Notes under the pieces: model-generated
What the model was told of the DNA's origin: nothing
The model's database searches: none
What the model saw: only the letters and a program-made list of their open reading frames with translations
Assembly: GCA_964545415.1 (NCBI GenBank)
Contig: CAZJFP010000001.1
Span: forward strand, 9,786-73,785
Length of the DNA stretch: 64,000 bases
Direction of reading: 5' to 3'
DNA from: an uncultured Candidatus Peribacteria bacterium
GTDB taxonomy: Bacteria; Patescibacteriota; Gracilibacteria; Absconditabacterales; Absconditicoccaceae
Translations under genes and position numbers: made by a program
Shown: positions 1 through 53,012 of the stretch, in pieces
Position numbering within the stretch: position 1 is the stretch's first letter
Layout: each line of letters opens with the position of its first letter

Positions 1-2
1 AG

Positions 3-857
3 AAGCTTAAAAGCCCCTTCGCAAAACTATTTCTCGAAAAGTTAGAAGAATTGGAACTCAGAAGAAATCTTATCCTCGCATACAGCAAACAAGATTTTGA
101 GAATATAGCGACATACAATAAAAAGCTTTTCGGTGAATTTGATGATGAACTTTTGAAAGTAGCAAAAGAAAAAGTATTCACACTCAAGGAAGATAATCAA
201 AAGCTTTTGTGAGAACCATTGACCTTGTCAGAGATAGAAACAACTATAGAGAAATATCTCGCAGAAAAAAAAATTTATGGAATCGATATTGTTTTCAGTT
301 ATACTAATCTCTCAAGAATATCCGTCATCATTGGGAAAAACATCAAAATCAGTATCTCCAAGCATGGAATTTTCAGAGAAAAAGAATTGCTTTCCATATT
401 AGCCCATGAAATCGATACCCATCTCATCAGACATCTTAATGGACTCAAATCTGGATGGAATATTCTGAAATCAGGGACTGGATTTTATCTCAAGGATGAA
501 GAAGGATTGGCCATCTATAATGCAACAAGAATACTTCCTGAAGACTACAAAAAAGATAGTATCTATAAAAAATATTTTTTAGTCAAAGAAGCAGAGAATA
601 TCGACTTCAAAAAATTGGTGCATATGATTGACTTCATTTATCCGAATTATTCGAGGGAATTCCATTTCAAGACCGCACTAAGAATAAAGAAATGAATCAT
701 ACACACCAGCATCATCCATCCAGGATCGGTCTTTTTCAAAGATAAAGTTTATCTGGAATGATATGAAAAAATACAACAGCGAATAGAAAGTTGAAACGAT
801 GACAAGAAAATCTATAAGGGGAAAATCAAAATTGAAGATCTGAAATTTATCATATAA
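3..857 (+). CDS. DUF1704/MATCAP-like metallopeptidase (QEGLA-motif family), 5' partial
   Basis: Frame 3 is open from the window edge. Track ORF 219..695 continues through in-frame TGA at 210, 693, 759 and 792 to TAA at 855-857. It has the motifs LAHEIDTHLIRH (HExxxH) and KDEEGLAIYNA (QEGLA-like), followed by KDKVYLEGY. Confidence 0.75.
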
Positions 858-866
858 GCGTGTTTC

Positions 867-1835
867 ATGATAAAAGTCGCCATAGAAATATGATATCATA
901 CCCATTATACCAAAATCGATACGTATGGCACAAGATCCTTCATGCAATATTTTTTTCAATCCTATGGACTTGAACTTGTAAGAGTGAGTATCAATAAATT
1001 CAACAAACGCCAATGATATTTTACAGAATACCATATATTCGATTCCACAGGAAAAAATATCATGGTAAAAAAGCCATACAAACCTGATATTATCTGGATA
1101 AGAAAATGAGGGGAAATATGCCACAAATTTGAGACATTTCATAACTTTTTATTAATTCCTTCTCAAAAAATAGTAACTTTATGAAATGACAAATTCGATC
1201 AATATCAATTCCTTCATACATATCAGCCCTATACTTCACTATTGTCAGCATTTTTTAACAATAAAAGCATTCAGAAGCTTTTTAGTGGAAAAGTAGTTTT
1301 GAAGCCTATAAGGTCAAGTTGATGAAAATGAATACAGCTCACTACCGTCAATACATTACTCAAAGAGAAAGAAAAATATGCTTGATTGGAAAAACTTTAT
1401 ATTGTCCAGCAATTCAAAGATTTCAGCAAATGATATCCATGAATCGTAAAAGGAATACATGATGTAAGATTTATGTTTGCAGGGAAAAACATCATAGAAA
1501 CAACTTGCAGAATACCAAAACCATGAGGATTCAAAAGCAATGTCAGCGATTGAGGAACGGTTATTGCTTTGAAAAAAAGTCAAATACCTAAACAACTTCT
1601 TTCATTATCAAAAAAGATATATAAGGATTTGCATATTCAGGATGATAATATTTTTTCAATGGATTTCTCCTACTGCTCCAGTGAAAAAAAACGATATCTC
1701 ATAGAGATCAATTCTTCTCCATGAACATGGACATCTCGATATAGGGATATAAAGATACTAAAAAGCATATATAAAGGATTGGTTTCTTTTTTTCATACAG
1801 AACGGCTAAAAAGACAAAACTATTATAAAATTTAA
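867..1835 (+). CDS. ATP-grasp ligase, RimK/glutathione-synthetase-like
   Basis: This 322-codon frame-3 ORF is only visible with TGA=Gly (about 14 in-frame TGA); I checked it triplet by triplet. Motifs are VVLKPIRSSGGKGIQL, GIHDVRFMFAGKNII, RIPKPGGFKSNVSDGGTV and YLIEINSSPGTW. The standard-code track shows only antisense ORFs here. Confidence 0.8.
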
Positions 1836-1862
1836 AAAAATTTTAATTTTTCATCATATTAG

Positions 1863-3143
1863 ATGTATCTCATAGGATTTTATTCAAAAAAAAGTCTATT
1901 TAAACTTAATAAGTTCGATTATTATAAAACAAGTTTCAACGATCTCAAAGCACATGATATTTCTGTTATTTATTTTTATCAGGAAGATCCTACTATCAAT
2001 CTTTCACAAGATATTATTGATGGGATCAACAATATGGGAGTAAAAATTATTAGCTTTACTGATGATAAAACTATCATAGCATATTTACAGACGTTATCAT
2101 GACGTATCTTCATAAATACTTTTGAAGAACAAGAAATATATTTTACCAATAAAATCAGAGCTGAATTATGACAAAAAATAACAGATAATCCAGATATATT
2201 CCTCAATAAATATTTACAGAGAAAAACTATAGGAGATCAGTATCCAGAGACTATCGTACGATATAAAAGTTTCAGTATACAAGAAGCAGAACATGTTACT
2301 ATAAAAGATTTTCCCTCATTTCCCTGTATCATAAAGCCCACTTGATGAATACAAAGCAGTTGAGTATGCAAAATAAACAATTTCGAAGAATACCAAACAT
2401 CACTAAAGACAACGTTCAATGCATTTACTATGCTGGGAAATAAAAAATTAACCAATCAATCCGTTTTGATAGAAGAATTTATTGATGGAAAAATGTATAC
2501 TATTGACTATTACGTCGATGAAGATCAGCATATTACCATGTCAAAACCTGTTTTTGTTAAATTATGAGTCGATTATGGTATCAATGATTTTTCTAATATA
2601 TCCAGATTTATTTGATATGATATAGAAACAGAAGTTGATGACAAAAAACTTCATGATTTTATAAAAAAGACAGTCATTTGATGAGGCATCAGGAATACGT
2701 TTGTACATCATGAGTTTAAGATAACTACGAAATGACAAATGAAAACGATAGAAATCAACGGAAGGATCTGATGATTCAGATTGGACATGTATCAGTTATG
2801 ATATGATATAAATCTTCTCAGGTTTCCCTTTATTCCTGACACTGAGAAAGTATATTCTTTGAAGCAAAATATAGCAATGTTTGCATTGTATCCACAGCAA
2901 ACAGCTACTTTCCATGGATACCATCAAAACATCATAAAACAAATAACAAGTCTTCCCTCTTTTTACAGAATAAACAAATGAATCAAAGAATTATGAGCAA
3001 CAATCTGATTGACTCATAACTGATATGGCAAAGTGTGATCGATAGAATTAGCAAACAGCGACATACAGCAATTCAAAAAAGATGTTGATTTTCTAGAAAA
3101 TAACTATTTTAACATCATCAACACGGATTCATGATCGGATTAA
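1863..3143 (+). CDS. ATP-grasp domain protein (second ligase)
   Basis: Frame 3 runs from ATG 1863 to TAA 3141-3143 and I found no TAA/TAG in between. Motifs are FPCIIKPTGGIQSSGV, IEEFIDGKMYTIDYYV and TIEINGRIGGFRLD, with the glycines encoded by TGA. Confidence 0.8.
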
Positions 3144-4231
3144 ATTATGTCTATTATTCGTTAAATGATGATATTATCTTAAAAAATTATCTTTTTTTCT
3201 TTGGATTGTTTTTTAAGGAGATAGTGTCAGAAGATGAAATGGACAAAAAGAAAGCAAAAAAGATCATTGCTTTGTTAAAAGGTATTTCTCCTCTGAAAGC
3301 AAAACAAGCAATCATTTCGTCAGATGAAAATATATTTGATTCTCCCTTAATAAAGGAGCTGTTACTTTTGGCGTTTGATTATGAAATATGAGCTAAACTC
3401 TGTAAAAAAAAGATTCCGTCTCTCCTAAAAACCAATCAACGCATATTATCGATTTTCAATACGCTCTATGGAATCGATTATCATCGTAGCATTACTACAG
3501 CAAATTTTGCCAAATATACCAAGAACCAATGAATATATACCTTTTACCATGAACAATACTATGATTCTGCTGAAGCATCTATCAAGAAATTCTTTTCCTT
3601 TGTTTTCGATATTCTTGAAAAAAGCGGTCATAAAAAGGAAAAAAGACAGCTTGAACAAGAAGTAACTATTCACACAATTCGTACCGTCTATCACAAAGCA
3701 AACAGCTCTTTTGTGGAAGCCAAAGGGAATACTATAACTATCCATTTACATTCAAAGAAAAAGACTGTTCTCTATCATGAATGCACTCATCTTATACATA
3801 TGCTTGTCAGGAAAAGATTTTCCATAAAGAAAAAATGATTTAAAATCCAGTCCTTCAATGAAGGAGCAGCTAACTTTTTTGCCTATAATCTCTTTGATAA
3901 TATAGAACAATGAACTTTCACTACTATATCTCTAAAATATCTCAATTTTCCGAAATACAGCTATCTCTACCATGAAATCTTTACCAAAGGAACAAATTCT
4001 TCACATAGCAATTATCTTTTGGTAAAAAGGACATGTAAAACTCTATGATATACCAATAAAAAAGAAATAGAGGCAATTTATTATAGATGTTTCAAATTTT
4101 TCCCCTTTTCTCAGCATATGTATCTTTATCCCAAAGAACTTCTTTATCAGATATGATATGAACGTATCATACATTCATTTAAAGGGAAGGATCCTCTTTA
4201 TCGTATTGCTGAGATCATTCTTTATACTTAA
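3131..4231 (+). CDS. Zincin-like hypothetical peptidase, distantly DUF1704-like
   Basis: Frame 2 is open from 3131 to TAA 4229-4231 through 7 TGA codons. Motifs are LYHECTHLIHML (HExxH) and SFNEGAANFFA, which echoes the QEGLA motif. The start is uncertain; ATG 3238 is an alternative. Confidence 0.6.
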
Positions 4232-4264
4232 TATTTTCGTTTTTTATTCATTTCCCCTACATGT

Positions 4265-4822
4265 ATGAATACAACATTATCCACCAATCGCTTGATAATC
4301 AGACAAATGAAAGAAGATGATATCTCTTCTATGACCCAACTTTTGAAAGAAAAAAAAATAAGATCATTTATCAATTTACCAAATAATTTACAAAAACTAA
4401 AAAGATATATTGTATCCTATCAAAAAAAGAGACGCAAAGGTAAAACTATAAGATGGATAATTATCTTACCTCAAAGCAAAAAAATCATTTGATCTGTCGT
4501 ATTAAAAAAGATCAGCAAAAAACATAAAAAAGCTGATATATGATATTGGTTGGGAAAATATTATGAATGAAACGGATTTATGACTGAAGCACTCCAAGCA
4601 ATACTCTATTATGCATTCAATACCATGAAATTCGAAAGAATTCAGGCGTGGATCAGAACAGATAACACAGCATCAATCAAATTAGCAGAAAAAATATGAT
4701 TTATCCGTGAATGAACAGCTAGACATCTACATTTTTCAAAAAAAGATCAAATTTATCATGATTTTTTTCTCTATGGAATATTATCAGAAGATTTTTGACA
4801 AAATACCAAAAAAAGCATATAA
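4265..4822 (+). CDS. GNAT family N-acetyltransferase (RimJ/RimL-like)
   Basis: Frame 2 runs from ATG 4265 to TAA 4820-4822. The pattern LSTNRLIIRQMKEDD ... YWLGKYYEGNGFMTEALQAILYYAF ... RIQAWIRTDNTASIKLAEKIGF is typical of RimJ/L-type GNATs. Confidence 0.75.
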
Positions 4823-4852
4823 TAATATGCTTTACTCTTTATATCCGCCATC

Positions 4853-6721
4853 ATGGGAAATCATTTAGAATATGCTGAGCGTGTCCAAGAAACAGAGAAA
4901 AGCCTCACTGGGATGAACTGACTCAAATTAACCTATATTACCAAAAAATCCGCCTCATTGGATGGCTATATGAATTATATCTCCAGCAAATTTTTCCCAG
5001 AGAAAGAACAGATATCTCTCTATGATATAGAAGAAAGAAGTGCAATCATCGAAACAACGATTCAATCATATAAGAGCATCCAGCAAGAAATAAAATCAGA
5101 TCATGTATTAGATTCAGATTTAAAATTATTTCTCATCAAGAAGATACAAGAAAGTACAAATAAAGCAGAAATAGCAAAGATATCACTTTTGTTTGAAGCG
5201 GAAAAATATGGATATGATATAAATTTTGCAGGAACCTCCTTTTCTATCAAAAAAAATCAAACAGCAATAGAACAGATAGGATTATGATCTGATTATGAAA
5301 AGGAAAAAAACAAATATCTGGAACATATCGAAGATTTGCAAACCGCTACTTACGGGCCAAAAATCAGTGATAATCCTGATGAAAAAAATATCATTCTTTC
5401 CTTATGCAATGATAAATATCAAAAAAATAAAAAAAGACTGACACAACAAGAGGATATCTTGTTTTCTTCTTTTCTTGATACCTTCAAAGACAGCATCACT
5501 AACACGATACCTCAAGATAGAAAGAAACTTTCTTCAAGAGGAAAACTTTCTATGTCAACTATCATGGAAGGAACAGAGCATGTTAAAACACATTTTTATC
5601 CAGAAATAACTCAGCGGCCTCAACAACAAGAAAAATGAAAAACATGATATGCCGCGCCATTTAGTAGCAAAGTCCGTGAATATCCAGACAAGGAAGAAGA
5701 TATTTTCAATAAAATTCTGACTACTATAGGACATGAGGATGCATGACACATGATCAGATGAAATAATCAAGAAGGAAACTGATTGATCATAGCATGACCG
5801 TGATATGAAGATATTGAAGAAGGAATTACTAAGCTCAACGAATGATTATTGAGATATTCGCTAGATGACTACCCTCTTATCCCAAATGATACATTTATAG
5901 CTGTATTTATAGGTGAAAATTATAATTTTGAAGCTACCTATCATCTTCTCAAAGCATGGAAAAAATTGAATATTTCAGAAGAGATAACAAAAGAGAAAGA
6001 AACTTCCTTATCCAAGATTGCTTTCAACCTAGCACAAAGAGTGAAATGTTATTATCCTCGGGATGAAAAAGGTTCGAACAGAAAAGATGTCATCTATTTT
6101 AGAGGAGAAAAAAAACTAGTCGAATATCTAAAGTCATTGCCAAATGATGAAGAAAGAGCTGCTTTTTATAGAAAAGCCATGTCGGCTAAAGTTTCCTTTG
6201 AAGATATATTTACTCTAGATACACTTTTCCAAAAACTATGAGTTCATCCAGAAGACATCAATCAGAATAAGCTTGTTGATAAAGTGTTTCATATAAAGCT
6301 TAAGGAATGAGCAGGGGCATTCAGTAAAAAAGCGAATGATGAATGAGTAGCAAATATTGAAAAAAATCTGTGGAAATGAGATTTTAGATTTAATGGAATG
6401 AAAGAATATGTCCAAGAAGAAAAGAAAGCATTGGTAGAACTTTTTGACATGGTGCATTACAAAAAGTATAGAGGGAAATATGTCCAAGAAGCAAAATGGA
6501 CCCAGCTCAAAGCAAGAGACGTATTAAAGAAATGAAATATCATGTCTCTCCCTACTGCCAATGGTATCCAAAAAGCAAAAGTGATCTCTTCAGATCTTAA
6601 TGAACTCAAAGTAATACTACAACACGACGGAAAATTTACTGGATGAGACATCATGACTATCTCAAAAAAAGATATAAAAAATCTATGAGAAGTAAGGATT
6701 CTCAACAAACAGAAAAAATAA
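4853..6721 (+). CDS. Large DUF1704/MATCAP-like metallopeptidase paralog
   Basis: Track ORFs 4958, 5336 and 5849 are all in frame 2. They join through TGA into a 622-codon ORF ending at TAA 6719-6721. TIGHEDAGHMIRGNNQEGNGLIIAGPGYEDIEEGITKLNE aligns with the HExxxH..EEGLA block of gene 3..857, followed by VIYFRGEKKLVEYL. Confidence 0.7.
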
Positions 6722-6785
6722 TTTCACTTGAATCCTATCTTCAAATCAGTTAAATACTGACGATTTATTTGTCTATGTTTTTCTT

Positions 6786-8087
6786 ATGAAAAAACTTATC
6801 GCGCTCACCATACTACTCGCGGGAAGCTTATTCCTTTTCACTAGCACATCAGCACAATTCTCTCCTACAACTTGTGAATGACAGGCCCACTGCTCTGCTC
6901 CTACCAAAGGCATCAATTACAGAAACACCATCATCTATATCTGAACGGAAGGCGATGAATTCGATCTTGGGTTCCAGACAAATTTCGATAAGCAGAAAAC
7001 CCTCCTTCAAGAAATATTCATTTCAGATACCAAAAATTTTTCTGAAGAAGATATACTTACAAAAATAAAAAACAATATCGCTGATATCCAGACAAGCAAG
7101 ACATTGATAATCAATACTTCGAACTTTGATGTACTTCTTCAACTTCTGGCTAAAGTCCACGTTTCTGACAATCTCAATCTCAAAGACAAAACAATCTATC
7201 TGGTGACCAATAGCAATAAGTTTTTCCTCAAAAGGATGCTGGCCAAATATATCAAGCCGATTGAGATCACAAAAATATATACGCTTTCCCAGGACAAACT
7301 CCTCAATTTCCTTTCGACGCTTTCTTTGGATAAGATAACGAATAAAGAAGAATATATCACGCCATTCTCTCTTTCATTTCAAGAGACACCGAAATATCTC
7401 CCTATCTCTTATCTTGTGGATCGCTTGATCTATCATGGATTCCCTGTAGAACTCATCACTATGTTTTTGGTACTGTCTTTGTGAGCATTGCTGATAAGCA
7501 TCTTGAGACAAATAGTGTGATTTTCAATATTTGGTATCTATAGTCCTCTGCTCTTTGCTGTCTCTATGTCGATCCTTGGCGTACCATTCAGTCTGACATT
7601 GCTTGGTATATGATTGATCACCAAACTGCTTATGAGACTTTTTACCAAAAGGATGTATCTCCTTCACAATGCAAAGACATCGCTCTTGGTCATATTATAT
7701 TTTCTTCTCATGCTGCTTGTTTTCTGACTCAATACTATTATCTGACTCAACCGAATAGATATCACTATTTTTGCTAATGGATATATCATTTTCCCGATGA
7801 TCTTCATCATCCTCGTAAGCGACAAAGTCTTCAACGAAGGATTCAAACTCTTTAGTGCTGGACGACGAGTAGCATTTTCAGAATTCATCATAGTATCTTT
7901 CGCTGTATATGGACTCTTCTATCGGACATGATTGAAGCATCTTCTCTTAGCATTCCCTGAATTATTGATTCTGATTTTTTTCCTCAATATCGCTGTTTGA
8001 AGATTTACCGGACTCCAACTTCTCGAATATTTCCGTTTCATGCCATTATTGAAGAACTCCTCAGGGACTGAAGAGGAAGAGGAATAA
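6786..8087 (+). CDS. Secreted N-terminal domain fused to a 7-TM membrane domain, with acidic C-terminus TEEEEE
   Basis: Frame 3 runs from ATG 6786 to TAA 8085-8087 (checked). It has a signal peptide (MKKLIALTILLAGSLFLFTSTSA), a soluble domain of about 200 aa, then seven hydrophobic segments. The architecture resembles the 7TM proteins that co-occur with RimK-like ATP-grasp genes. Confidence 0.7.
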
Positions 8088-35341: not shown

Positions 35342-35497
35342 TATCAGAAAATAGATCGATTACTTCAATTTATAAACATATTAAATATATTTTTATTACA
35401 CTGTCAATCTAATGTGGATACAATGACAGTGTTTTTTTGATTATTCGCCCATCGAGAATATAATAGTAACGTACATTATTTCTTTACTGTTTGAACG

Positions 35498-38203
35498 ATG
35501 GCAATGATCAAAAACCTCACTCAACATTCACCGATGCTTACTCTGCTCAAGAGATTCCTCTTTGGGCTCATTCTGCTTTTGTGTGGATTTGTAGCAACCT
35601 TCAGATTTCTCCATGCGGATAGCCTCCCTTTTGAGGATGATCTGACAACCATCTTCCCTTGGATAGATACGGGGAATTACACCAACACCTACTTCAAATT
35701 TGGAGGAAACGATTTTGTGGGTATCATTTTCCGAGAAGGAACTGAAACACTTTCTACACCAGAAACCGTCAGTATCAACAGCTGAGCTCAAGCCATTTCT
35801 TGTACTCAAAAGCTTAGATGAATCTACTACAACAATCAAAGAGGTTGGGTAATATGGCCTTTGGACACAGGAAACCTTACCACACTACAAACACACCCTT
35901 TGGCTGTAGGATATGGCGACATGAGTATGCAACACGGATTTTATACCAACTGTAGCGCATTGAGTTGAGGATATATTCCAGCAATCAATGAAGTCTACGG
36001 ACAGATAGACCATACGCTCAGCGGAGTGGGGCAATTTCACTTGTTTGCTGGAGTTGAATATGATTTCACCGGCAATGCTATCGTGGTTTGATCATTATTT
36101 GACCATACATTATCTATCATATCTTGAATACACAACGGACATATTTTCGATGATAATTGAGGTATTGCTGAACTTAGCATGAATCTTCCACGATGTGCAA
36201 ATTTTTCTATGGGACCCACAAACTTCCCACAATGATCTACCGCAACATTCATTTGTGAAGGAAATAGTATAGCAGGATACGGTCTCAGCATACGATCTGG
36301 AGGCATTCAACCCATGTACAATAATTCTACATCCAATACGGGTTCAACACAACGATGGCTTACAGGAAATACTCTTCCTGTTGGAAACTATACTGCACAA
36401 TGCCTTATATTACTGAGCTGAGGCGGAGGAATGCCATGTGGATGATCACTTCCTTTCCAAGTGACTGGTACAGGAACTATTCCTACTACAGGAACTGCCT
36501 GTGATGCAAACTTCCAAGGAGAGATAAGTTTCTTACCATTATCTGCAGGGCAATTTATCACTAACCCTTCATTGGGAACATATTATACCAACAAAACAGG
36601 TATCATACTTCAACGGGCAGCTACACAGCCTAATCAAATATCTATTTCATGAGATTTGACACCACAGATTTCTTCCAATTATACGGGAGATGATATGTTT
36701 ACCGATATAGCATCTTATCCTGTTTCTCTTACCAAGATTGATGATTGGAATTATTTCTATAGCACCTACACAACTACTGGTTCTACAGGAACATGTACCT
36801 ATACTGATGCCACCAAGAGAATGTTTATGGATACTGTTCCTCCTACTAGTCCTACAATAACTACACCGGCAAATGGATCTTATCTATGTCCTTCTACTCC
36901 TATGACCGTAACATGGACACCTTCAACTGACACAGGTTCACTCCTCTCTCATTATGCATATGAAATTTACAGCAATACAGGTATGACAACCATCGTCCTT
37001 AGTGGAACCGTTCCTAACACAATCACCACAACACAGATAGCTACACAATCTCTTCCTTTGGGAACATATTATCTCAGAATAGCCGCAGTGGATAATGTTG
37101 GATTGAGATGATATTCAACAGGGGTTACCTTCACAACATCATCAAGCTATTGCTCTGCAGGAACAGGTATCATGATTGTTAGTCCAGTAATATCCATCAC
37201 GAATGCAAATCTCGACACCGTTTATAGATCAGATCCTATCTATATCTTTGGACTCACAGGACCTACCCTACTCACTATTTCCAAATGAATGCTTTTCATC
37301 AACAACGGTACTGGAGTAGGAACTACAGGTATAGTAACCTCTAACGATACTATCCATATTGAGCTTATTTCAAGCAATGAACACGATACTACTATTTCCT
37401 CACAACTTACTATCCTCAACAAGACAGGAACCTTTTCTGTTACCACCAAGGATAGCGATTGTGTGTTAAGCGCTTCTGAGAGATTAGTTATCCAAAATAT
37501 CTATGCTGAACTAAAGGACGAATATAACAATGATATCTCAAAATATTCAGAATTTTTGACCACCTTCCAAAGCATGGTTGAAGATGAATCCAACCTCAGC
37601 AATAGCTGTACGCTCGAATACCTCCTTCAACTTATTGAAGATGATTTTGGATCTGAATGAATTAATACAAAGGATCACATTACCCCAAATTGCAAAGAAT
37701 ACACTATAGGATATGATGTAACAGAATGAGCATATTACTCGCCTGATATGATGAACAGATATTATTTCATCAACCGCGAATCGCTCATCAGACATCTCGA
37801 TTATTACAACCCAGGCGATTGTCATATCAATACCTACGGAACCAATTATCGATCATCAAGCGAGAATCCTATGCTTCATGTAGCTCCTAACGGTAAGATC
37901 TATCATCTCATAGGGCAGTATGGCGGATATTCTGCAGAGGAATTTATCAGCCCTAAATATTTCGATTCATTGCAAGGTATCAAGACATACATCGATCTAA
38001 AAAATCCAGCAAAAGATATTTGGAAGCACACTTTGGATACTGCATTCATTCCCATCGTCTATGCAGCACCCAATGGCAAGGAATATAAGATCTACAAGAC
38101 AGACAGAGGATTTATGTCTTACAAGCTCATGAAAGTGAGATACTTCTCAAGCCTTTGAGAGCTCAAAAGCTATATCGACAAGAATAATCCAAGCAAACGA
38201 TAA
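35498..38203 (+). CDS. Giant secreted/surface protein 1 (901 aa) with FN3-like module and triple C-terminal repeat
   Basis: Track ORFs 35498, 36461, 36656, 37289 and 37748 all share frame 2 and are joined by TGA (checked). It has an N-terminal TM/signal segment. The FN3-like block is PMTVTWTPSTDTGS...YAYEIYS...GTYYLRIAAVDNVGL. Confidence 0.75.
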
Positions 38204-38245: not shown

Positions 38246-41200
38246 ATGAAGTTACCATTTCATTACATCAGACATGCACAAAAGACCTTCGATCATTTCC
38301 ATAGGAATATGCATCATGCTTTTGTGATTATCGTGTGAGCTATTATAGGAATGCTCCGATGAGCATCACATCTTTTCCTACCGACACATGCCACACGGCA
38401 ACGATGAGGATTTATCACGAGCGATTTCCGATATCAGAGCCCAAGCCAATGAAACATCAAATATGCGCTTTTTGGAGATGGGACACCTTGATCAACTGCG
38501 TACACCAATATATGGAATAGTAGTTGTATACCTACGAATCCTATACAATATATTTCCTCTTTATCATGAACTACCCTGTCAGACAATACTATATATGTCG
38601 TAAATTCCGGAACCTATACACTTACCAGTCCACTCATCATAGGCAACTGCTCGGCAATCATCTGAATCGGTGAGGTTGTCATCAACGCTAACGGGTATCC
38701 TATCGAAATACAGAACGGACAGAATATCATCATCGACAATATTGCATTCGACGGACAGAATACCGTATCACAAGGGATCATTGTAAACACCTGAACAAAC
38801 ATAACCTTCAACGGAATAGACGTATACCACAATACATGATATGGAATATATACCACCAACACTAACAACATATTATTCGATAATTCGAACATCTATGACA
38901 ACAGCAGTATCGGAATAGCTGTTTCCAACAACACAACCATAAACAATTCAAAAATCTATAATAACAGTGAGGGCTTGGTCATAAATCAATACAGCAACAA
39001 TACTATAAACAATTCACAGATTTACAACAATACCAAGTGAGTAAGAATTGGGTATTATACATCTACGCCGATGTGTCCTGTAAATACGGCATGTGTTCGA
39101 TGCTCCACTATCGATTTGAAAAACACGATAAACAATACCATCATATACAACAACGATAATGGTATCTATATAGATAAATGTTTATCTATGGGTAATCAAT
39201 CGTATGATTTCAATCGTATATACTATCTTAATGATACAAAGATATACAATAATGGGACATGAATAGCAGAAATTGCTAATTTTGGATCCGGATTTACGAT
39301 GTCATATTATTGAACACTAAGAGTATTTGGAAATGATGTATTCACGTGAGGTGTAATTTCTCATCTCACTCCAGGATTACTTCCCTCACCCGTAACTACA
39401 CGATCTGCATGATCACTTGACGCTACACCTACATCAATGACCTATGATCGAGTAACCAACCCTCAGAACGGTAGCTGACAATGGATGCTCAATGGAATAT
39501 TGACTGAACTCAGAGGAATTCAGACGTTCGATGTCACACGTCCGATCAGATATATCTTTTGATTGAATATATCCAAGCAGATCGTTCCTGTCCGGTTCAA
39601 TTCTTCCAGTCTGGAGGCATATGGATCCGACGGAGCGGAGTATTTCACAACAAAATATATTACTGAGCCCTCATCCATACTTTCCTTCAACCAGCAGAAT
39701 CTCGTTCAGCAATATTTTTGATCCTGATCAGCTTTCACCGAAAATCGGGAAACCAATTGATGTTCACTTTCTGCCTTCCAAGTAAAGGAACTCACTGGCG
39801 GAACTTTTTCCTCTACCTATGCTTTTGAAGATCATACTATATATATCCTTACTGGTGGTGAATATAGATCGGCGCTTTCATTAGGTTATCCTTTTGTTTT
39901 TAATGGAAACTGTATTGCACTCGTAGGGACAGATACTACGAGATTCACCAAAAATGGATGATCCGGTATCCTTGGTATGTTGTATGCTGACAACAAGCAC
40001 AACATCATCATTGACAACATCAAGGTCGATGCGGAATATTATGGTACGAACTCTGTCTCTTGACCAGCAGCAGTCGGAATCAAGCTTGATGGCGCAAGCA
40101 ACAACAACACATTAAACAATATCCAAGTATACAATACATCAGAATACGGAATCTATCTCGGTCTCGGATCGCATCACAACACTATCATCAATGCACAGAT
40201 ATTCAACCATGCTCTAGCGGGTATTTATCTGTATTATGCATCCAATTATAATGTCATCAACAATACGCAGGTGTACAACAATACTGCTTATGGAATCTGG
40301 TTCGCTAACGGATCCAGCAAAAACACTATGAACAACTTCCAAGCATACAATAACCAAATCGGTATATTCTGAGATCTTACCACCAAGGAGAATGTTCTCA
40401 ATAGAGCTGCTATCTACAACAACAGCGAAGCGGGTATCTATTTCAAAAACGCTTCAGGAAATGCACTCAATGACGTTATGATCTACAACAATACCAAAGG
40501 TATCAAGGCATTATATAGCTCTAACAACAACAAATATTATGGCGAATTGAAATTTTTCGCCAACACTTCAGATCTCGATGGTACCGATGCAAATGATGGA
40601 TATCTTGCTCCAGGAACGGCAGGACTTTTTCCTTACGAAGGAACGTTGATCACAGGAACGACCGCTATGTCGTGTTTATACGCTACCAATCCTACCCGTT
40701 CGGGCGATTCTATTACCCTGCTCAATAGCAGCTGTAACAATAGCTGATATAATAGTTCATTCATCTCACAATACAATACCTATACCAATTATATGTTCGG
40801 TCTCGGTATATACAAACAAAGCATACCTATCAGATACGAAAGTGGAAATACACAACCCGTACAAATCCCTTCACAATATGACGCAAACAAATACATCGCT
40901 GAGCTCTTCGCTATTCGAGATACTTATCCTGAATATGTAGGATTTGCTTCTACAGGATCTGCACCACTGAATAGCTGGTATACAACAGAAGTATATACGG
41001 CAGGAACGGTGAATATCCCTGTCCTTGCTACGCTCTCCTTTGAGCCGAGTACAACTTCGTGATATCTCATCATCAGCTGAACAACATTAACAACACTGAC
41101 CGGCATGGTAAATAACGGTGATCCTATCCAAGTAAAATTACTCACTCAACCATGATATAACCAAACGATTACTGGTACCATTACGATAGGAACAGCTCCT

Positions 41201-42931
41201 ACCGCAACGTTTACTATCACTACCAGAGACTATAGCCAAACACCTGCCACAGGATCATTTGCATTTGCAAACTTTACGAGTATACCCCTAGATACATTCA
41301 CCGGTAGCACCGTTACGATCGCAGGCATTGAAACTGGCGTATTAGCATCTATTGCCTTTGTTCCTACAACGACTTCGTGACGGCTGGAGATCTACTCGTG
41401 AGGAATACTCGTGAATTCATGAACGACCGGTCTACTCGTCCACAATGGCAATCAGATCAAAGCTATTGCACAAAGCAGTTCAGGATATTCACAAACAGTA
41501 ACTGGGTATGTCACTATAGGACTCTGAACCGGTATGTTTACCATCAAGACCAAATGATCTGACGTCACTCCTCCTACCGCCCCTACACTGACGTATCCAT
41601 TGACTGGAGAAGAACTCTTCTTTGTAACTTGGGAATGGACTGGAGCTACCGATACGGGATCAGGTATCGAAGGATATGTCTATCAAATTGCTGAAGATAG
41701 TTCATTTACTGATATCGTAGATACTGGATTTATAGCTACTACAGGAACATTTGGACGGCCAAGCACTGCATTTGATGCAACTAGCGATACGTTCTATCGA
41801 AGACTCCAGGCAAGAGATAGGGATGGCAATCTTTCCTCACGAAGCAATGCTGGACGTTTTGAAGCGATAGATTCTGATGAACGAAATTTTGATGAAATAG
41901 AAAACGCAAATCTCAGGACCTATTATGATTCCAATGAAATCACCCTGGAAGGTATCAAGGACGGCCTTTCTCTCCAGGCTACTATCGATAACAACGGAAC
42001 GCTCTATGAAAACGAAAATGAAAAAGGTACAGGAACTTTGATCCAAAATGATGATACCTTATTCATCAATCTCAGATCAAGCAATAGATATGACAAAACC
42101 GTTTCTTCAATCCTTACGATAGCAAATAGGGAACTCGAATTTACTGTTACTACCAAAGAGCAATCTGATGACGGATGTACGCTTAACGAAGATGATGAAA
42201 CCACGATCCAAGATATCTTCGATGGTCTTGTAGAAAATTATTCATGAGATGAAAATATGTATGAAGAATTCCTCTACACGATGCAAAGCATGTTAGAAGA
42301 TGAAATCGATTTTACCAATGATTGTAATCTTCAGTATCTCCAAGATCTCATCAACGATGAAATCTGAATCACCCCTGAAAGTCCGACCGCTACTACAGGC
42401 GCACATATAGCACCTAACTGTAAACAATATACTGTAGCTTTCGATACTACAAGATCTGCATATAGTTCACCGAACTTCAAGGTGGTTACCTATTTTGCAA
42501 ACCGTGATGCACTGACGAGATATATCGATAGCAAGAATCCTGGAGATTGCCATATCACTACCTATGGTGTCTCATCATGGATATTCACCAATACCGATCC
42601 TACAAAGCACATTGCAGCCAATGGAAAAATCTATACCGTACAAACGTCCCCTCAAGGATGATATACATCAAGCGATTTTTCTTCTGCAAAATATTTTTCT
42701 ACCCTCAATGCCCTTCGCGCTTATATCGACACCAATAATCCTCCTCCAGAGGTATGGAATCATCAGGTAGATACCAGTTTCTCTCCGCAAGTATACACTG
42801 CACCAAATGGAAAAGAATATACTATTTATCACACCAACAGAGGATATATGTCCTACAAACTCATGAAAGTAAGATACTTCTCTACTCTAGCAGAATTACA
42901 GGCATATATACAGAAAAACAATACTAGATAA
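38246..42931 (+). CDS. Giant secreted/surface protein 2 (1561 aa) with parallel beta-helix repeats, FN3-like module and the same C-terminal module
   Basis: Frame 2 is open from ATG 38246 to TAA 42929-42931; I walked it across all junctions. It has many N-x-x-I-Y-N-N-type beta-helix repeats. The C-terminal ~450 aa are paralogous to those of gene 35498..38203. Confidence 0.75.
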
Positions 42932-52445: not shown

Positions 52446-53012
52446 TTATTTTTTGTATTCCACGAAGCCTAATTCTCTTGCTCTCAATACCGCAGTCTTG
52501 AGCTTTTTTTGCACTGATACAGGATTGTTCGTATATGCTCTAGGCTTGATATCACCGAATCTCGTGATATATTTTCTGAGCATTACTACAGACTTCCGAT
52601 TGAGATATTTTTCATTTTTCTTGTCCGCAAAAAAGGAAACTTTTTGTCAAAGCTTCTTCGGATCCCATGTTTCTATGACTGCTCCAAGTTCTTCATTTAC
52701 TTTTGCAAATTTCAAAAACTCTTCATTCTTATCCATCTTGAAGATATAGTATCTCTTGATTGCCTTGTTGTACAAGAGATTCTTTTTGATTACATCTAAA
52801 TCTTCAGCTTCTGCCTGAATATAATATGAATACACATATGCCTTGTCATTTCAAGCTTTATTGCTTAAATTGTACCTCAATTGCTGGAGACCTATATCGT
52901 CATGTTCGACAATAGTCTTTTTGATGAGACTTTCGAATTCAGAAACGATTTCTTTGCGGTTTGTCTCTGACAACGATGCATCAACCAACAACACTACATC
53001 ATACTTTTGCAT
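52446..53012 (-). CDS. rpsF-rpsR: 30S ribosomal proteins S6 and S18 encoded as one in-frame ORF (apparent fusion)
   Basis: It has an S6-like N-terminus (MQKYDVVLLVDASLSE...LRYNL...YVYSYY), a single in-frame TGA at 52647-52649, then an S18-like C-terminus (LRKYITRFGDIKPRAYTNNPVSVQKKLKTAVLRARELGF). No TAA/TAG occurs before 52446. Confidence 0.7.

Follow-up and report, generated by a model that had tools for sequence, protein, structure and literature searches.

A cluster of seven genes, g1 to g7, occupies positions 3 to 8087 of the stretch of 64,000 nucleotides analyzed here (the window), and its closest database relatives carry the label Candidatus Absconditabacteria/SR1. The cluster is best explained as the SR1/Absconditabacteria version of an Rlo-type system, in which cytoplasmic zinc carboxypeptidases of the MATCAP family stand in for the protease partner. 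Tentatively, and with somewhat less than even confidence, we propose that the ligases of the cluster extend, and its MATCAP-type carboxypeptidases trim, a glutamate (Glu) tail on g7, a membrane protein with seven transmembrane (7TM) helices. The following features are central to this proposal:

3..857, + strand: g1, MATCAP/DUF1704 metallocarboxypeptidase domain, with its 5′ end cut by the window edge
6786..8087, + strand: g7, signal peptide, extracytoplasmic domain of ~194 amino acids (aa), 7-TM domain (7TM_transglut/RloB) and 29-aa tail predicted to be cytoplasmic
8070..8084, + strand: C-terminal EEEEE of g7, encoded by GAA GAG GAA GAG GAA and followed by TAA

The Glu tail of g7 and the ligase-peptidase fusion

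The preliminary description of this DNA compared g7 with the 7TM family that is fused to an inactive transglutaminase. The 7TM part of the comparison stood, whereas the transglutaminase domain went undetected. Residues 225 to 421 match PF14402 (7TM_transglut; 7.4e-11, 42.4 bits against a cutoff of 25), and the RloB model NF052267 is matched weakly (2.9e-5) and only in its 7TM part (model positions 315 to 508); a Pfam search returned no transglutaminase family for aa 24 to 220 at E ≤ 1. The hydropathy profile fits seven TM helices, and hydropathy, the distribution of Lys and Arg residues, and the positive-inside rule together predict an N-out, C-in topology in which the 29-residue tail would be cytoplasmic.

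The C-terminal end of g7 reads ...SSGTEEEEE. Homologs were collected from across SR1/Absconditabacteria, down to 33% identity, and all 95 of the 95 found end in an acidic run of 2 to 7 residues, nearly all of them Glu and the last one always E, which comes after a conserved EYFRFMPL[IL]K motif. Runs of five (35 homologs), three (33) and four (17) residues predominate over runs of six (7), two (2) and seven (1). The Pfam and RloB models stop at g7 residues 421 to 424, ahead of the tail, and five classical RloB proteins (one from Legionella, three of the Aeromonas type and one 78%-identical relative) have unrelated, non-acidic ends. A wider sampling of classical RloB tails yielded two records in a plasmid collection and four close Aeromonas-type loci in a metagenome scan; the specificity of the tail to SR1 thus rests on five RloB proteins from three lineages, together with the positions at which the Pfam and NCBIfam models stop. 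In the tail model, a peptide ...FMPLLKNSSGTEEEEE or the g7 C-terminal domain would be the candidate acceptor.

At the other end of the cluster, g1 is the C-terminal third of a fusion protein of ~820 aa that joins an ATPgrasp_ST (RloC-like) ligase to a MATCAP domain, the remainder lying beyond the window edge. A near-identical contig (L001) lengthens g1 to at least 548 aa, and full-length fusions of 810 to 860 aa are present in loci L005, L008, and L010-L044. The first assignment of g1, as a DUF1704/MATCAP-like peptidase with HExxxH and EEGLA motifs, proved sound: the domain matches PF08014 (3.5e-14, 53 bits against a cutoff of 27), TIGR02421 (4e-17) and human MATCAP (7Z5G; 1.4e-8 across 227 residues). 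An HExxxH zinc/catalytic motif and a downstream EEG that gives the third ligand are the MATCAP hallmark (PMC10499314), and the corresponding motifs of g1, HEIDTH (window 405-422, aa 135-140) and EEGLA (window 498-512, aa 166-170), line up with those of MATCAP. Judged by these profile and motif matches, g1 is a bona fide MATCAP-family member.

The ligase half was assessed on the full-length fusion of L008, which matches PF14397 (8.5e-42, 144 bits against a cutoff of 31) and TIGR02291 ("alpha-L-glutamate ligase-like"; 4e-54, 184 bits, below the cutoff of 314) as well as PF08014 (3.4e-16). By these scores, the N-terminal half of the fusion is a member of the RloC/TIGR02291 family and not an equivalog. 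Because g1 is fused to an ATP-grasp domain, the cluster has three ligase domains; two had been recognized beforehand, the RimK-like g2 and the ATP-grasp_4 protein g3, but the third, in the other half of g1, had been missed. Fusions of the same kind were also seen in L050 (10001-12310), which comes from a standard-code organism and has no 7TM neighbor, and in L051 (10001-15131), from a UGA-recoded organism, where a second MATCAP-like zincin and an ATP-grasp_4 protein come after the fusion, with no nearby 7TM gene.

All of these assignments depend on the genetic code. Under table 11, window 1-8087 yields nothing but short open reading frames (ORFs). Taking UGA as sense raises the ORF capacity of the whole window from 51.8 kb to 131.8 kb, and positions 3-8087 are then tiled by seven ORFs, co-directional on the + strand and tightly spaced, as first reported, with gaps of 9, 27, -13, 33, 30, and 64 nt between successive genes. 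Several alignments argue that UGA encodes Gly and not Trp. The ATP-grasp loop of g2, SSGGKG, is built from three UGAs; of the four UGAs in g1, two stand opposite Gly in human MATCAP; and Gly is the commonest residue in 4/4 of the g1 UGA columns (27, 86, 89, 44) of a 113-sequence DUF1704 alignment, for which the UGA-free core of g1 was the query of an exhaustive search, although at codon 70 its plurality is weak. Where Trp is entered in these columns, it probably comes from other recoded genomes translated with table 4. Tables 11 and 4 were discarded on the basis of ORF tiling and Gly alignment at UGA, and by this evidence the organism uses table 25. Public SR1 predictions, here database proteins P0001-P0124, are mostly translated with table 4 and hence carry Trp where the genome encodes Gly (e.g., WHEDAGH for GHEDAGH); profile and structure predictions for the lineage are therefore poorer. 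Read with table 25, the genes between g1 and g7 are as follows:

867..1835, + strand: g2, RimK-like ATP-grasp ligase, 322 aa
1863..3143, + strand: g3, ATP-grasp_4 ligase, 426 aa
3131..4231, + strand: g4, HExxH...NEG gluzincin metallopeptidase, 366 aa, overlapping the end of g3 by 13 nt
4265..4822, + strand: g5, RimJ/RimL-type GNAT N-acetyltransferase, 185 aa
4853..6721, + strand: g6, divergent MATCAP/DUF1704-like metallopeptidase, 622 aa

Conservation of the cluster was examined in 38 loci fetched from species-representative genomes with g7 as the anchor; the complete chromosome of RAAC1_SR1_1 was among them, as was Ca. Vampirococcus lugosii. Their genes were re-called with table 25 and classified by iterated hidden Markov models (HMMs), and components were counted in those 24 distinct loci whose sequence reaches 7 kb or more upstream of the 7TM gene:

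ATP-grasp-MATCAP fusion: 23/24 loci
g6: 15/24 loci
other RimK-like paralogs: 15/24 loci
g2: 14/24 loci
g3: 4/24 loci
g4: 3/24 loci
g5: 3/24 loci

The seven-gene order, offered in the preliminary description as something to look for in related genomes, recurs exactly in L017 and in the near-identical L001, but across the larger set joint conservation is limited to the fusion and the 7TM gene, and in four genomes these two occur alone. The genes g2 to g6 constitute a low-GC variable segment.

Proposed writing and trimming of the tail

In the proposed mechanism, g7 would present a short cytoplasmic C-terminal tail ending in genetically encoded Glu, and the encoded EEEEE would serve as the primer or substrate of ligation and trimming. 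Using ATP, the RloC-like, alpha-L-glutamate-ligase-type domain of the fusion would add residues to the g7 C terminus, a step modeled on the action of RimK at the ...EE end of ribosomal protein S6, and the fused MATCAP domain would strip the added residues, as MATCAP/TMCP do on acidic tubulin tails. The length or composition of the tail would then be an adjustable state of the membrane protein. The remaining genes (g2, g3 with its partner zincin g4, g5, and g6) would be lineage-variable accessory writers, erasers, or cappers, and their products may add, remove, or acetylate other residues. Ligation and trimming on a membrane protein had already been suggested in the preliminary description, and the conserved C-terminal poly-Glu tail adds support to that suggestion; what the analysis shows is the gene content, the families with their intact catalytic motifs, the fusion, the conserved tail with its predicted cytoplasmic location, and the joint conservation of fusion and 7TM gene. 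The mechanism itself, including the tail as substrate, the identity of the added residues, and the process that the modification would control, is what we infer.

Several observations favor modification of the tail. The ligase and the eraser are physically fused and adjoin the 7TM gene in 23/24 loci, and the acidic run with its terminal E is present in 95/95 g7 homologs and is encoded by mixed GAA/GAG codons in the window. By the predicted topology, the tail would share the cytoplasm with the ligases and peptidases, all of which lack a fused signal peptide. The MATCAP family, to which g1 is linked by its match to human MATCAP (1.4e-8), comprises carboxypeptidases of acidic C-terminal tails that have been found in experiments to remove terminal Glu and shorten poly-Glu chains (PMC10499314), and RimK-type ligases lengthen protein C termini already ending in Glu-Glu (PMC11957051, PMC10375531). 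The classical RimK substrate is unavailable, S6 being fused to S18 in this genome, and the genes of the operon are packed too closely to accommodate one for a precursor peptide. The sampled classical RloB proteins, whose partner is a secreted retropepsin and not a MATCAP enzyme, lack the poly-E tail. Finally, catalytic residues are kept in all three zincins and both stand-alone ligases. The idea of a peptide made on the ribosome and modified after translation (RiPP), of the graspetide type, was rejected on the lack of room for a precursor gene.

Other observations weigh against the proposal. The acidic tail might have another role, in docking, in autoinhibition, or in the binding of cations, and the classical RloB tails sampled for comparison number only five, from three lineages. 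One SR1 locus, L024, has a poly-E 7TM gene without an adjacent fusion, and, conversely, the fusion lacks a neighboring 7TM gene in L050 (standard code) and L051. A simple length-control model leaves the great variability of the accessory genes unexplained. RimK also makes free poly-alpha-glutamate in vitro (PMC10375531, PMC11957051), and Pseudomonas genetics fit a toxic ligase product that is cleared by a periplasmic protease (PMC11957051), thus indicating an exported product rather than a modified tail. Tail modification is put forward here as a proposal from sequence.

The main rival explanation invokes a free product. Free acidic peptides or a poly-amino acid (poly-alpha-Glu-like and possibly GNAT-acetylated) would be made by the ligases and trimmed or recycled by the zincins, the 7TM protein would export or sense them, and its poly-E tail would be a product mimic or an enzyme docking site. 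The in vitro synthesis of poly-alpha-glutamate by RimK speaks for this explanation (PMC10375531; PMC11957051), and so do two results on P. aeruginosa: the hypo-osmotic lethality seen when the secreted RloA proteases are lost is suppressed if rloB or rloC is lost as well, and in vitro these proteases cut poly-Glu substrates, in keeping with a ligase product that is exported. It would also account for the amide-bond toolkit of the variable segment (RimK paralogs, ATP-grasp_3, the cyanophycin-synthetase-like Mur ligase of RAAC1, GNATs, and a YdjC-like protein) and for the fusions of L050 and L051 that have no adjacent 7TM gene. Elsewhere, pairs of GNAT and RimK-type enzymes make small N-acetylated peptides (NAAG, NAGGN), which is a further point in its favor. 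However, all peptidases of the cluster are cytoplasmic and one is fused to a ligase, an arrangement that would amount to a futile cycle in an export pathway; the strict terminal Glu run on the 7TM protein, absent from the classical Rlo partners, is not predicted; and the 7TM_transglut family has no demonstrated transport activity. We regard a free product as less likely than tail modification.

Within the framework of tail modification, a more elaborate form can be imagined, namely a prokaryotic "tail code" in which the genetically primed poly-Glu end of a membrane receptor would be lengthened, decorated, and trimmed by the bifunctional ligase-MATCAP enzyme, together with accessory ligases, carboxypeptidases, and acetyltransferases that diversify rapidly. 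We consider this extension rather unlikely.

The variable segment and its enzymes

The five genes of the variable segment have a GC content of 0.28-0.33, compared to 0.38 for g7 and 0.39-0.41 for the flanks, and g6 is only 34% identical between genomes in which g7 is 82% identical. In other genomes the segment is filled by an ATP-grasp_3 protein, GNATs of other families, a Mur-type ligase (RAAC1), or a YdjC-like protein. Such a pattern might mark an insertion hotspot, in which a two-gene system of fusion and 7TM gene flanks an accumulation of unrelated ligase and peptidase genes with no joint function. The step in GC content fits this explanation, as do the variation in middle-gene content among genomes with ~80% identical g7, the inversion of g6 in L012, L027, and L029, and a consensus promoter ahead of g6. 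Yet the fillers are non-random, being almost always ATP-grasp ligases, MATCAP-like/gluzincin peptidases, or GNATs, which is the biochemical theme of the core; the genes are co-directional and tightly packed here; and ligase-zincin pairs recur (g3-g4, the ATP-grasp_4 protein and 455-aa zincin of L051, and an Aminobacter QEGLA protein with a glutathione-synthetase-like ATP-grasp). A mere hotspot is thus improbable. The promoter is a 12/12 sigma-70-like match, TTGACA-17-TATAAT, at 4795-4823 (+), inside the 3′ end of g5 and 30 nt ahead of the start codon of g6. As an internal promoter it may drive g6-g7, but it is only suggestive because promoter-like sites overall are no more numerous than in shuffles, i.e., at the chance level.

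The site of the cluster is syntenic, between cysS and a convergent block of murF, an AI-2E transporter, DUF192, DUF4230, and L9. Adjacency to murF in nearly all SR1 loci raises the alternative of cell-envelope peptide editing, whereby a peptide carried by a precursor of peptidoglycan or of another envelope component would be built or remodeled by the ligases and carboxypeptidases, and the 7TM protein would take part in envelope assembly. Pseudomonas rlo mutants are altered in cell shape, beta-lactam sensitivity, and osmotic tolerance, and ATP-grasp_4, Ddl-like, and Mur-ligase-like enzymes are found in the variable segment, both in agreement with such a role. On the other hand, murF is convergent and belongs to a conserved housekeeping block, so its adjacency may be positional; the core ligase best matches the alpha-L-glutamate-ligase-like family and not Ddl or Mur; and MATCAP enzymes work on protein tails (PMC10499314). 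There is little probability that the cluster edits the envelope, and tail modification remains the account that we prefer.

The Mur-type ligase of RAAC1_SR1_1 (L034, CP006913.1; 8377-9627) is a protein of 416 aa that is closest to the cyanophycin synthetase M domain (TIGR02068, 2.6e-44) and adjoins a RimK-like ATP-grasp. By sequence, the two look like a split cyanophycin-synthetase-like pair, which hints at side-chain branching chemistry. The presence of variable accessory ligases and peptidases in a reduced-genome lineage, some members of which have been described as predatory or epibiotic, suggests that the system is under unusual diversifying pressure.

Among the stand-alone ligases, g2 matches PF08443 (RimK; 4.4e-10, 39.9 bits against a cutoff of 21) and TIGR00768 (1.8e-8), the latter with 34 bits under a RimK-family cutoff of 143, and PF03133 (TTL) only at 0.031. 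On these scores it is RimK-like and not a RimK equivalog. Residues K146 and R149, the G-loop, and D266/E280/N282 are kept in 11 homologs. A housekeeping role for g2, as the RimK of S6, was rejected, given that its score is far below the equivalog cutoffs and that S6 is fused to S18. The fused gene is a single 188-aa ORF at 52446-53012 (-), with S6 at aa 1-94 and S18 at aa 123-186 under table 25; one UGA lies in the S6 domain and one in the linker, and there is no start codon for a separate S18. The second ligase, g3, matches PF13535 (ATP-grasp_4; 5.6e-21) and has conserved K158, E204/E205, and E297/N299/R301. It is directly followed on its 3′ side by g4 in the window, L001, L007, and L017, and the two genes shift as a pair, occupying a different position in L007. 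The RimJ/L-like GNAT first reported for g5 is confirmed by PF13302 (Acetyltransf_3; 6e-30, 105 bits against a cutoff of 25.4); matches to the L7/L12 acetyltransferase model NF007539 (9.4e-16) are under the cutoff, and those to the RimL and RimJ equivalog models are far under theirs. Since g5 was found only in the window/L001, L017, and L037, with GNATs of other families elsewhere, it is by sequence an accessory gene of few genomes.

The zincins g4 and g6 have no Pfam or NCBIfam match, and each falls in a narrow family that lacks annotation (8 database clusters for g4 and 21 for g6). The affiliation of g6, initially described as a 622-aa MATCAP-like paralog, is borne out by profile comparison: its family aligns with DUF1704 in hhalign (98.2%, P 3.6e-14, 171 columns) with both motifs in register, while negative controls with the 7TM family gave <1%. 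The motifs are HEDAGH (5732-5749) and EDIEEG (5807-5824), in which H294, E295, H299, E319, E322, and E323 are invariant in 15 homologs (HExxxH...EDIEEG). The 455-aa zincin of L051 bridges DUF1704 (98.6%) and g6 (89.9%), not g4. An SH3/KOW-like beta-barrel is found at the C terminus of g6 (~aa 535-620; Foldseek match to KapB/KOW barrels, prob 0.98). On this profile evidence, g6 is a MATCAP-family member, though a divergent one.

For g4, which the preliminary description also grouped with MATCAP/DUF1704, the HExxH and NEGAA motifs are present and align, but the link to DUF1704 is moderate (hhalign 77.6%, P 1.9e-5, 169 columns). The motifs are HECTH (3776-3790) and NEGAAN (3857-3874), and H216, E217, H220, N243, and E244 are invariant in seven homologs, yielding a family signature of HExxH...NEGxANF. 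The spacing, invariant in the same homologs, is HExxH and not the MATCAP-type HExxxH; in the alignment, HEC-TH faces HEIDTH with a one-residue deletion, and NEGAAN faces EEGLAIYN. Direct hhalign comparisons of g4 with g6, and of the L051 zincin with g4, found no relationship. We class g4 as a gluzincin; that it is distantly related to DUF1704 and so affiliated with MATCAP is plausible, the link being moderate.

Structure prediction followed by Foldseek, recommended at the outset, gave for these two zincins weak gluzincin carboxypeptidase folds only (M32, ACE, DUF885, M48) and did not return MATCAP, an outcome that speaks neither for nor against MATCAP membership. The AlphaFold2 (AF2) models were made from the table-4 database twins P0001 and P0022, which have Trp at UGA positions. 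For g4 (predicted local distance difference test [pLDDT] score, 81), the best match is an M32 carboxypeptidase (prob 0.94, E 0.0096), with no MATCAP among the top 50. The g6 model (pLDDT 72) is poor at the active site, where the catalytic region reaches only 51-69, and it weakly matches M32/ACE/DUF885 folds (best E, 0.05) without MATCAP. Searches of PDB sequences with the g4 and g6 family profiles gave best E values of 1 and 0.11, respectively, both to unrelated proteins.

Elsewhere in the window, two adjacent genes at 35423-38203 (+) and 38246-42931 (+) encode large proteins of 926 and 1561 aa that have in common a C-terminal module of ~470 aa with 42% identity; judging by its repetitive "IYNN..." stretches, the 1561-aa protein may be a surface protein with a beta-helix. 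At 56742-63998 (-), in a stretch of low GC content (0.31-0.33), a giant ORF runs off the window end; it spans at least 2418 aa, has 59 in-frame UGA codons, and carries an HEMHH zincin-like motif.

Comparison with known systems

Among the closest known systems is Rlo, represented by RloABC of Pseudomonas aeruginosa and by related cassettes of proteobacteria, which consists of the secreted retropepsin-like protease RloA, the inactive-transglutaminase 7TM protein RloB, and the ATP-grasp protein RloC (TIGR02291). In both systems the genes for a ligase, a peptidase, and a 7TM protein lie together, g7 is in the same 7TM family as RloB (PF14402; NF052267), and the N-terminal half of the fusion is in the RloC family. 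The neighborhood of RimK-type ligases and 7TM_transglut proteins, given as known in the preliminary description, was found in the Legionella and Aeromonas loci, which carry the classical cassette of a small/secreted protease, an inactive-transglutaminase 7TM protein, and a TIGR02291 ligase (PMC11957051). The SR1 cluster differs in having, in place of a secreted retropepsin, a MATCAP-type zincin that is cytoplasmic and joined to the ligase; no retropepsin-like gene was present among the seven genes or the variable segments examined, although one is present in Legionella and Aeromonas. In addition, g7 has no detectable transglutaminase-like domain and ends in a poly-Glu C terminus that is absent in the sampled classical RloB proteins, the cluster has up to five further ligase, peptidase, or GNAT genes, and its proteins score far under the RloB/RloC equivalog cutoffs.

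The families themselves and the association of ligase and 7TM protein are already known, and Rlo has been studied genetically. Iyer et al. (2009) are said to have been the first to describe RimK-like ligase/7TM-transglutaminase contexts. In the searchable literature, we found no description of a fusion of an RloC-type ligase and MATCAP, of a secreted protease replaced by one to three cytoplasmic MATCAP-like zincins, of a universal poly-Glu tail, or of the variable accessory segment, with the limit that an unread comparative-genomics paper of 2009 may note parts of these and may have noted acidic tails.

In the RimK/RimB/S6 (RpsF) system, an alpha-L-glutamate ligase extends a Glu-Glu C terminus and a dedicated peptidase reverses the addition (PMC11957051, PMC11957791). 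Both g2 and the ligase domain of the fusion are RimK-like. In contrast to that system, the candidate substrate here is a membrane protein and not S6, which is fused to S18; the eraser is a zinc carboxypeptidase and not a retropepsin; and g2, at 34 bits, stays below the RimK-family cutoff of 143.

Bacterial DUF1704/QEGLA proteins (TIGR02421, "flavohemoglobin expression-modulating QEGLA motif protein") represent the domain family of g1 and also have ATP-grasp neighbors. On an Aminobacter plasmid (L048, NZ_AP017988.1; 4397-8141), an N-formylglutamate amidohydrolase gene is followed by genes for a 622-aa QEGLA protein and a glutathione-synthetase-like ATP-grasp, with no 7TM gene; the pairing of a MATCAP homolog with an ATP-grasp therefore reaches beyond SR1. 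The g1 domain differs from these proteins in having EEGLA instead of QEGLA, in being fused to an RloC-type ligase and linked to a 7TM protein, and in that it has been multiplied in the cluster into divergent paralogs (g6 and perhaps g4).

MATCAP enzymes were recognized only recently as tubulin-tail carboxypeptidases, and to our knowledge their many bacterial homologs (DUF1704/QEGLA) have no known substrate. The SR1 operon joins a ligase, a ligase-fused MATCAP eraser, and a membrane protein with what looks like a ready-made substrate end, and so makes two open questions testable, concerning the substrates of bacterial MATCAP homologs and the roles of RloB and RloC. If a tail code of the kind imagined above exists, g7 would be the first natural substrate, and the cluster the first physiological context, for bacterial MATCAP/DUF1704 enzymes. 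The finding also bears on the origin of the eukaryotic tubulin-tail machinery, for which the system, if it works as such a tail code, would be a plausible antecedent, namely of the tyrosination/glutamylation cycle.

In the tubulin cycle, TTL/TTLL ATP-grasp ligases are opposed by MATCAP (TMCP1/2), vasohibin, and CCP carboxypeptidases. The differences are that the ligases of the cluster are of the RimK/RloC type and ATP-grasp_4 and not TTL (PF03133 matches g2 only at 0.031) and that the candidate substrate is a 7TM protein. The likeness is that ATP-grasp ligases would oppose MATCAP-family carboxypeptidases on a Glu-rich, acidic C-terminal tail (PMC10499314), and the g7 end ...SSGTEEEEE resembles tubulin tails such as ...GEEEGEE(Y). 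By analogy, this suggests a possible bacterial counterpart of the eukaryotic add-and-trim tubulin-tail cycle.

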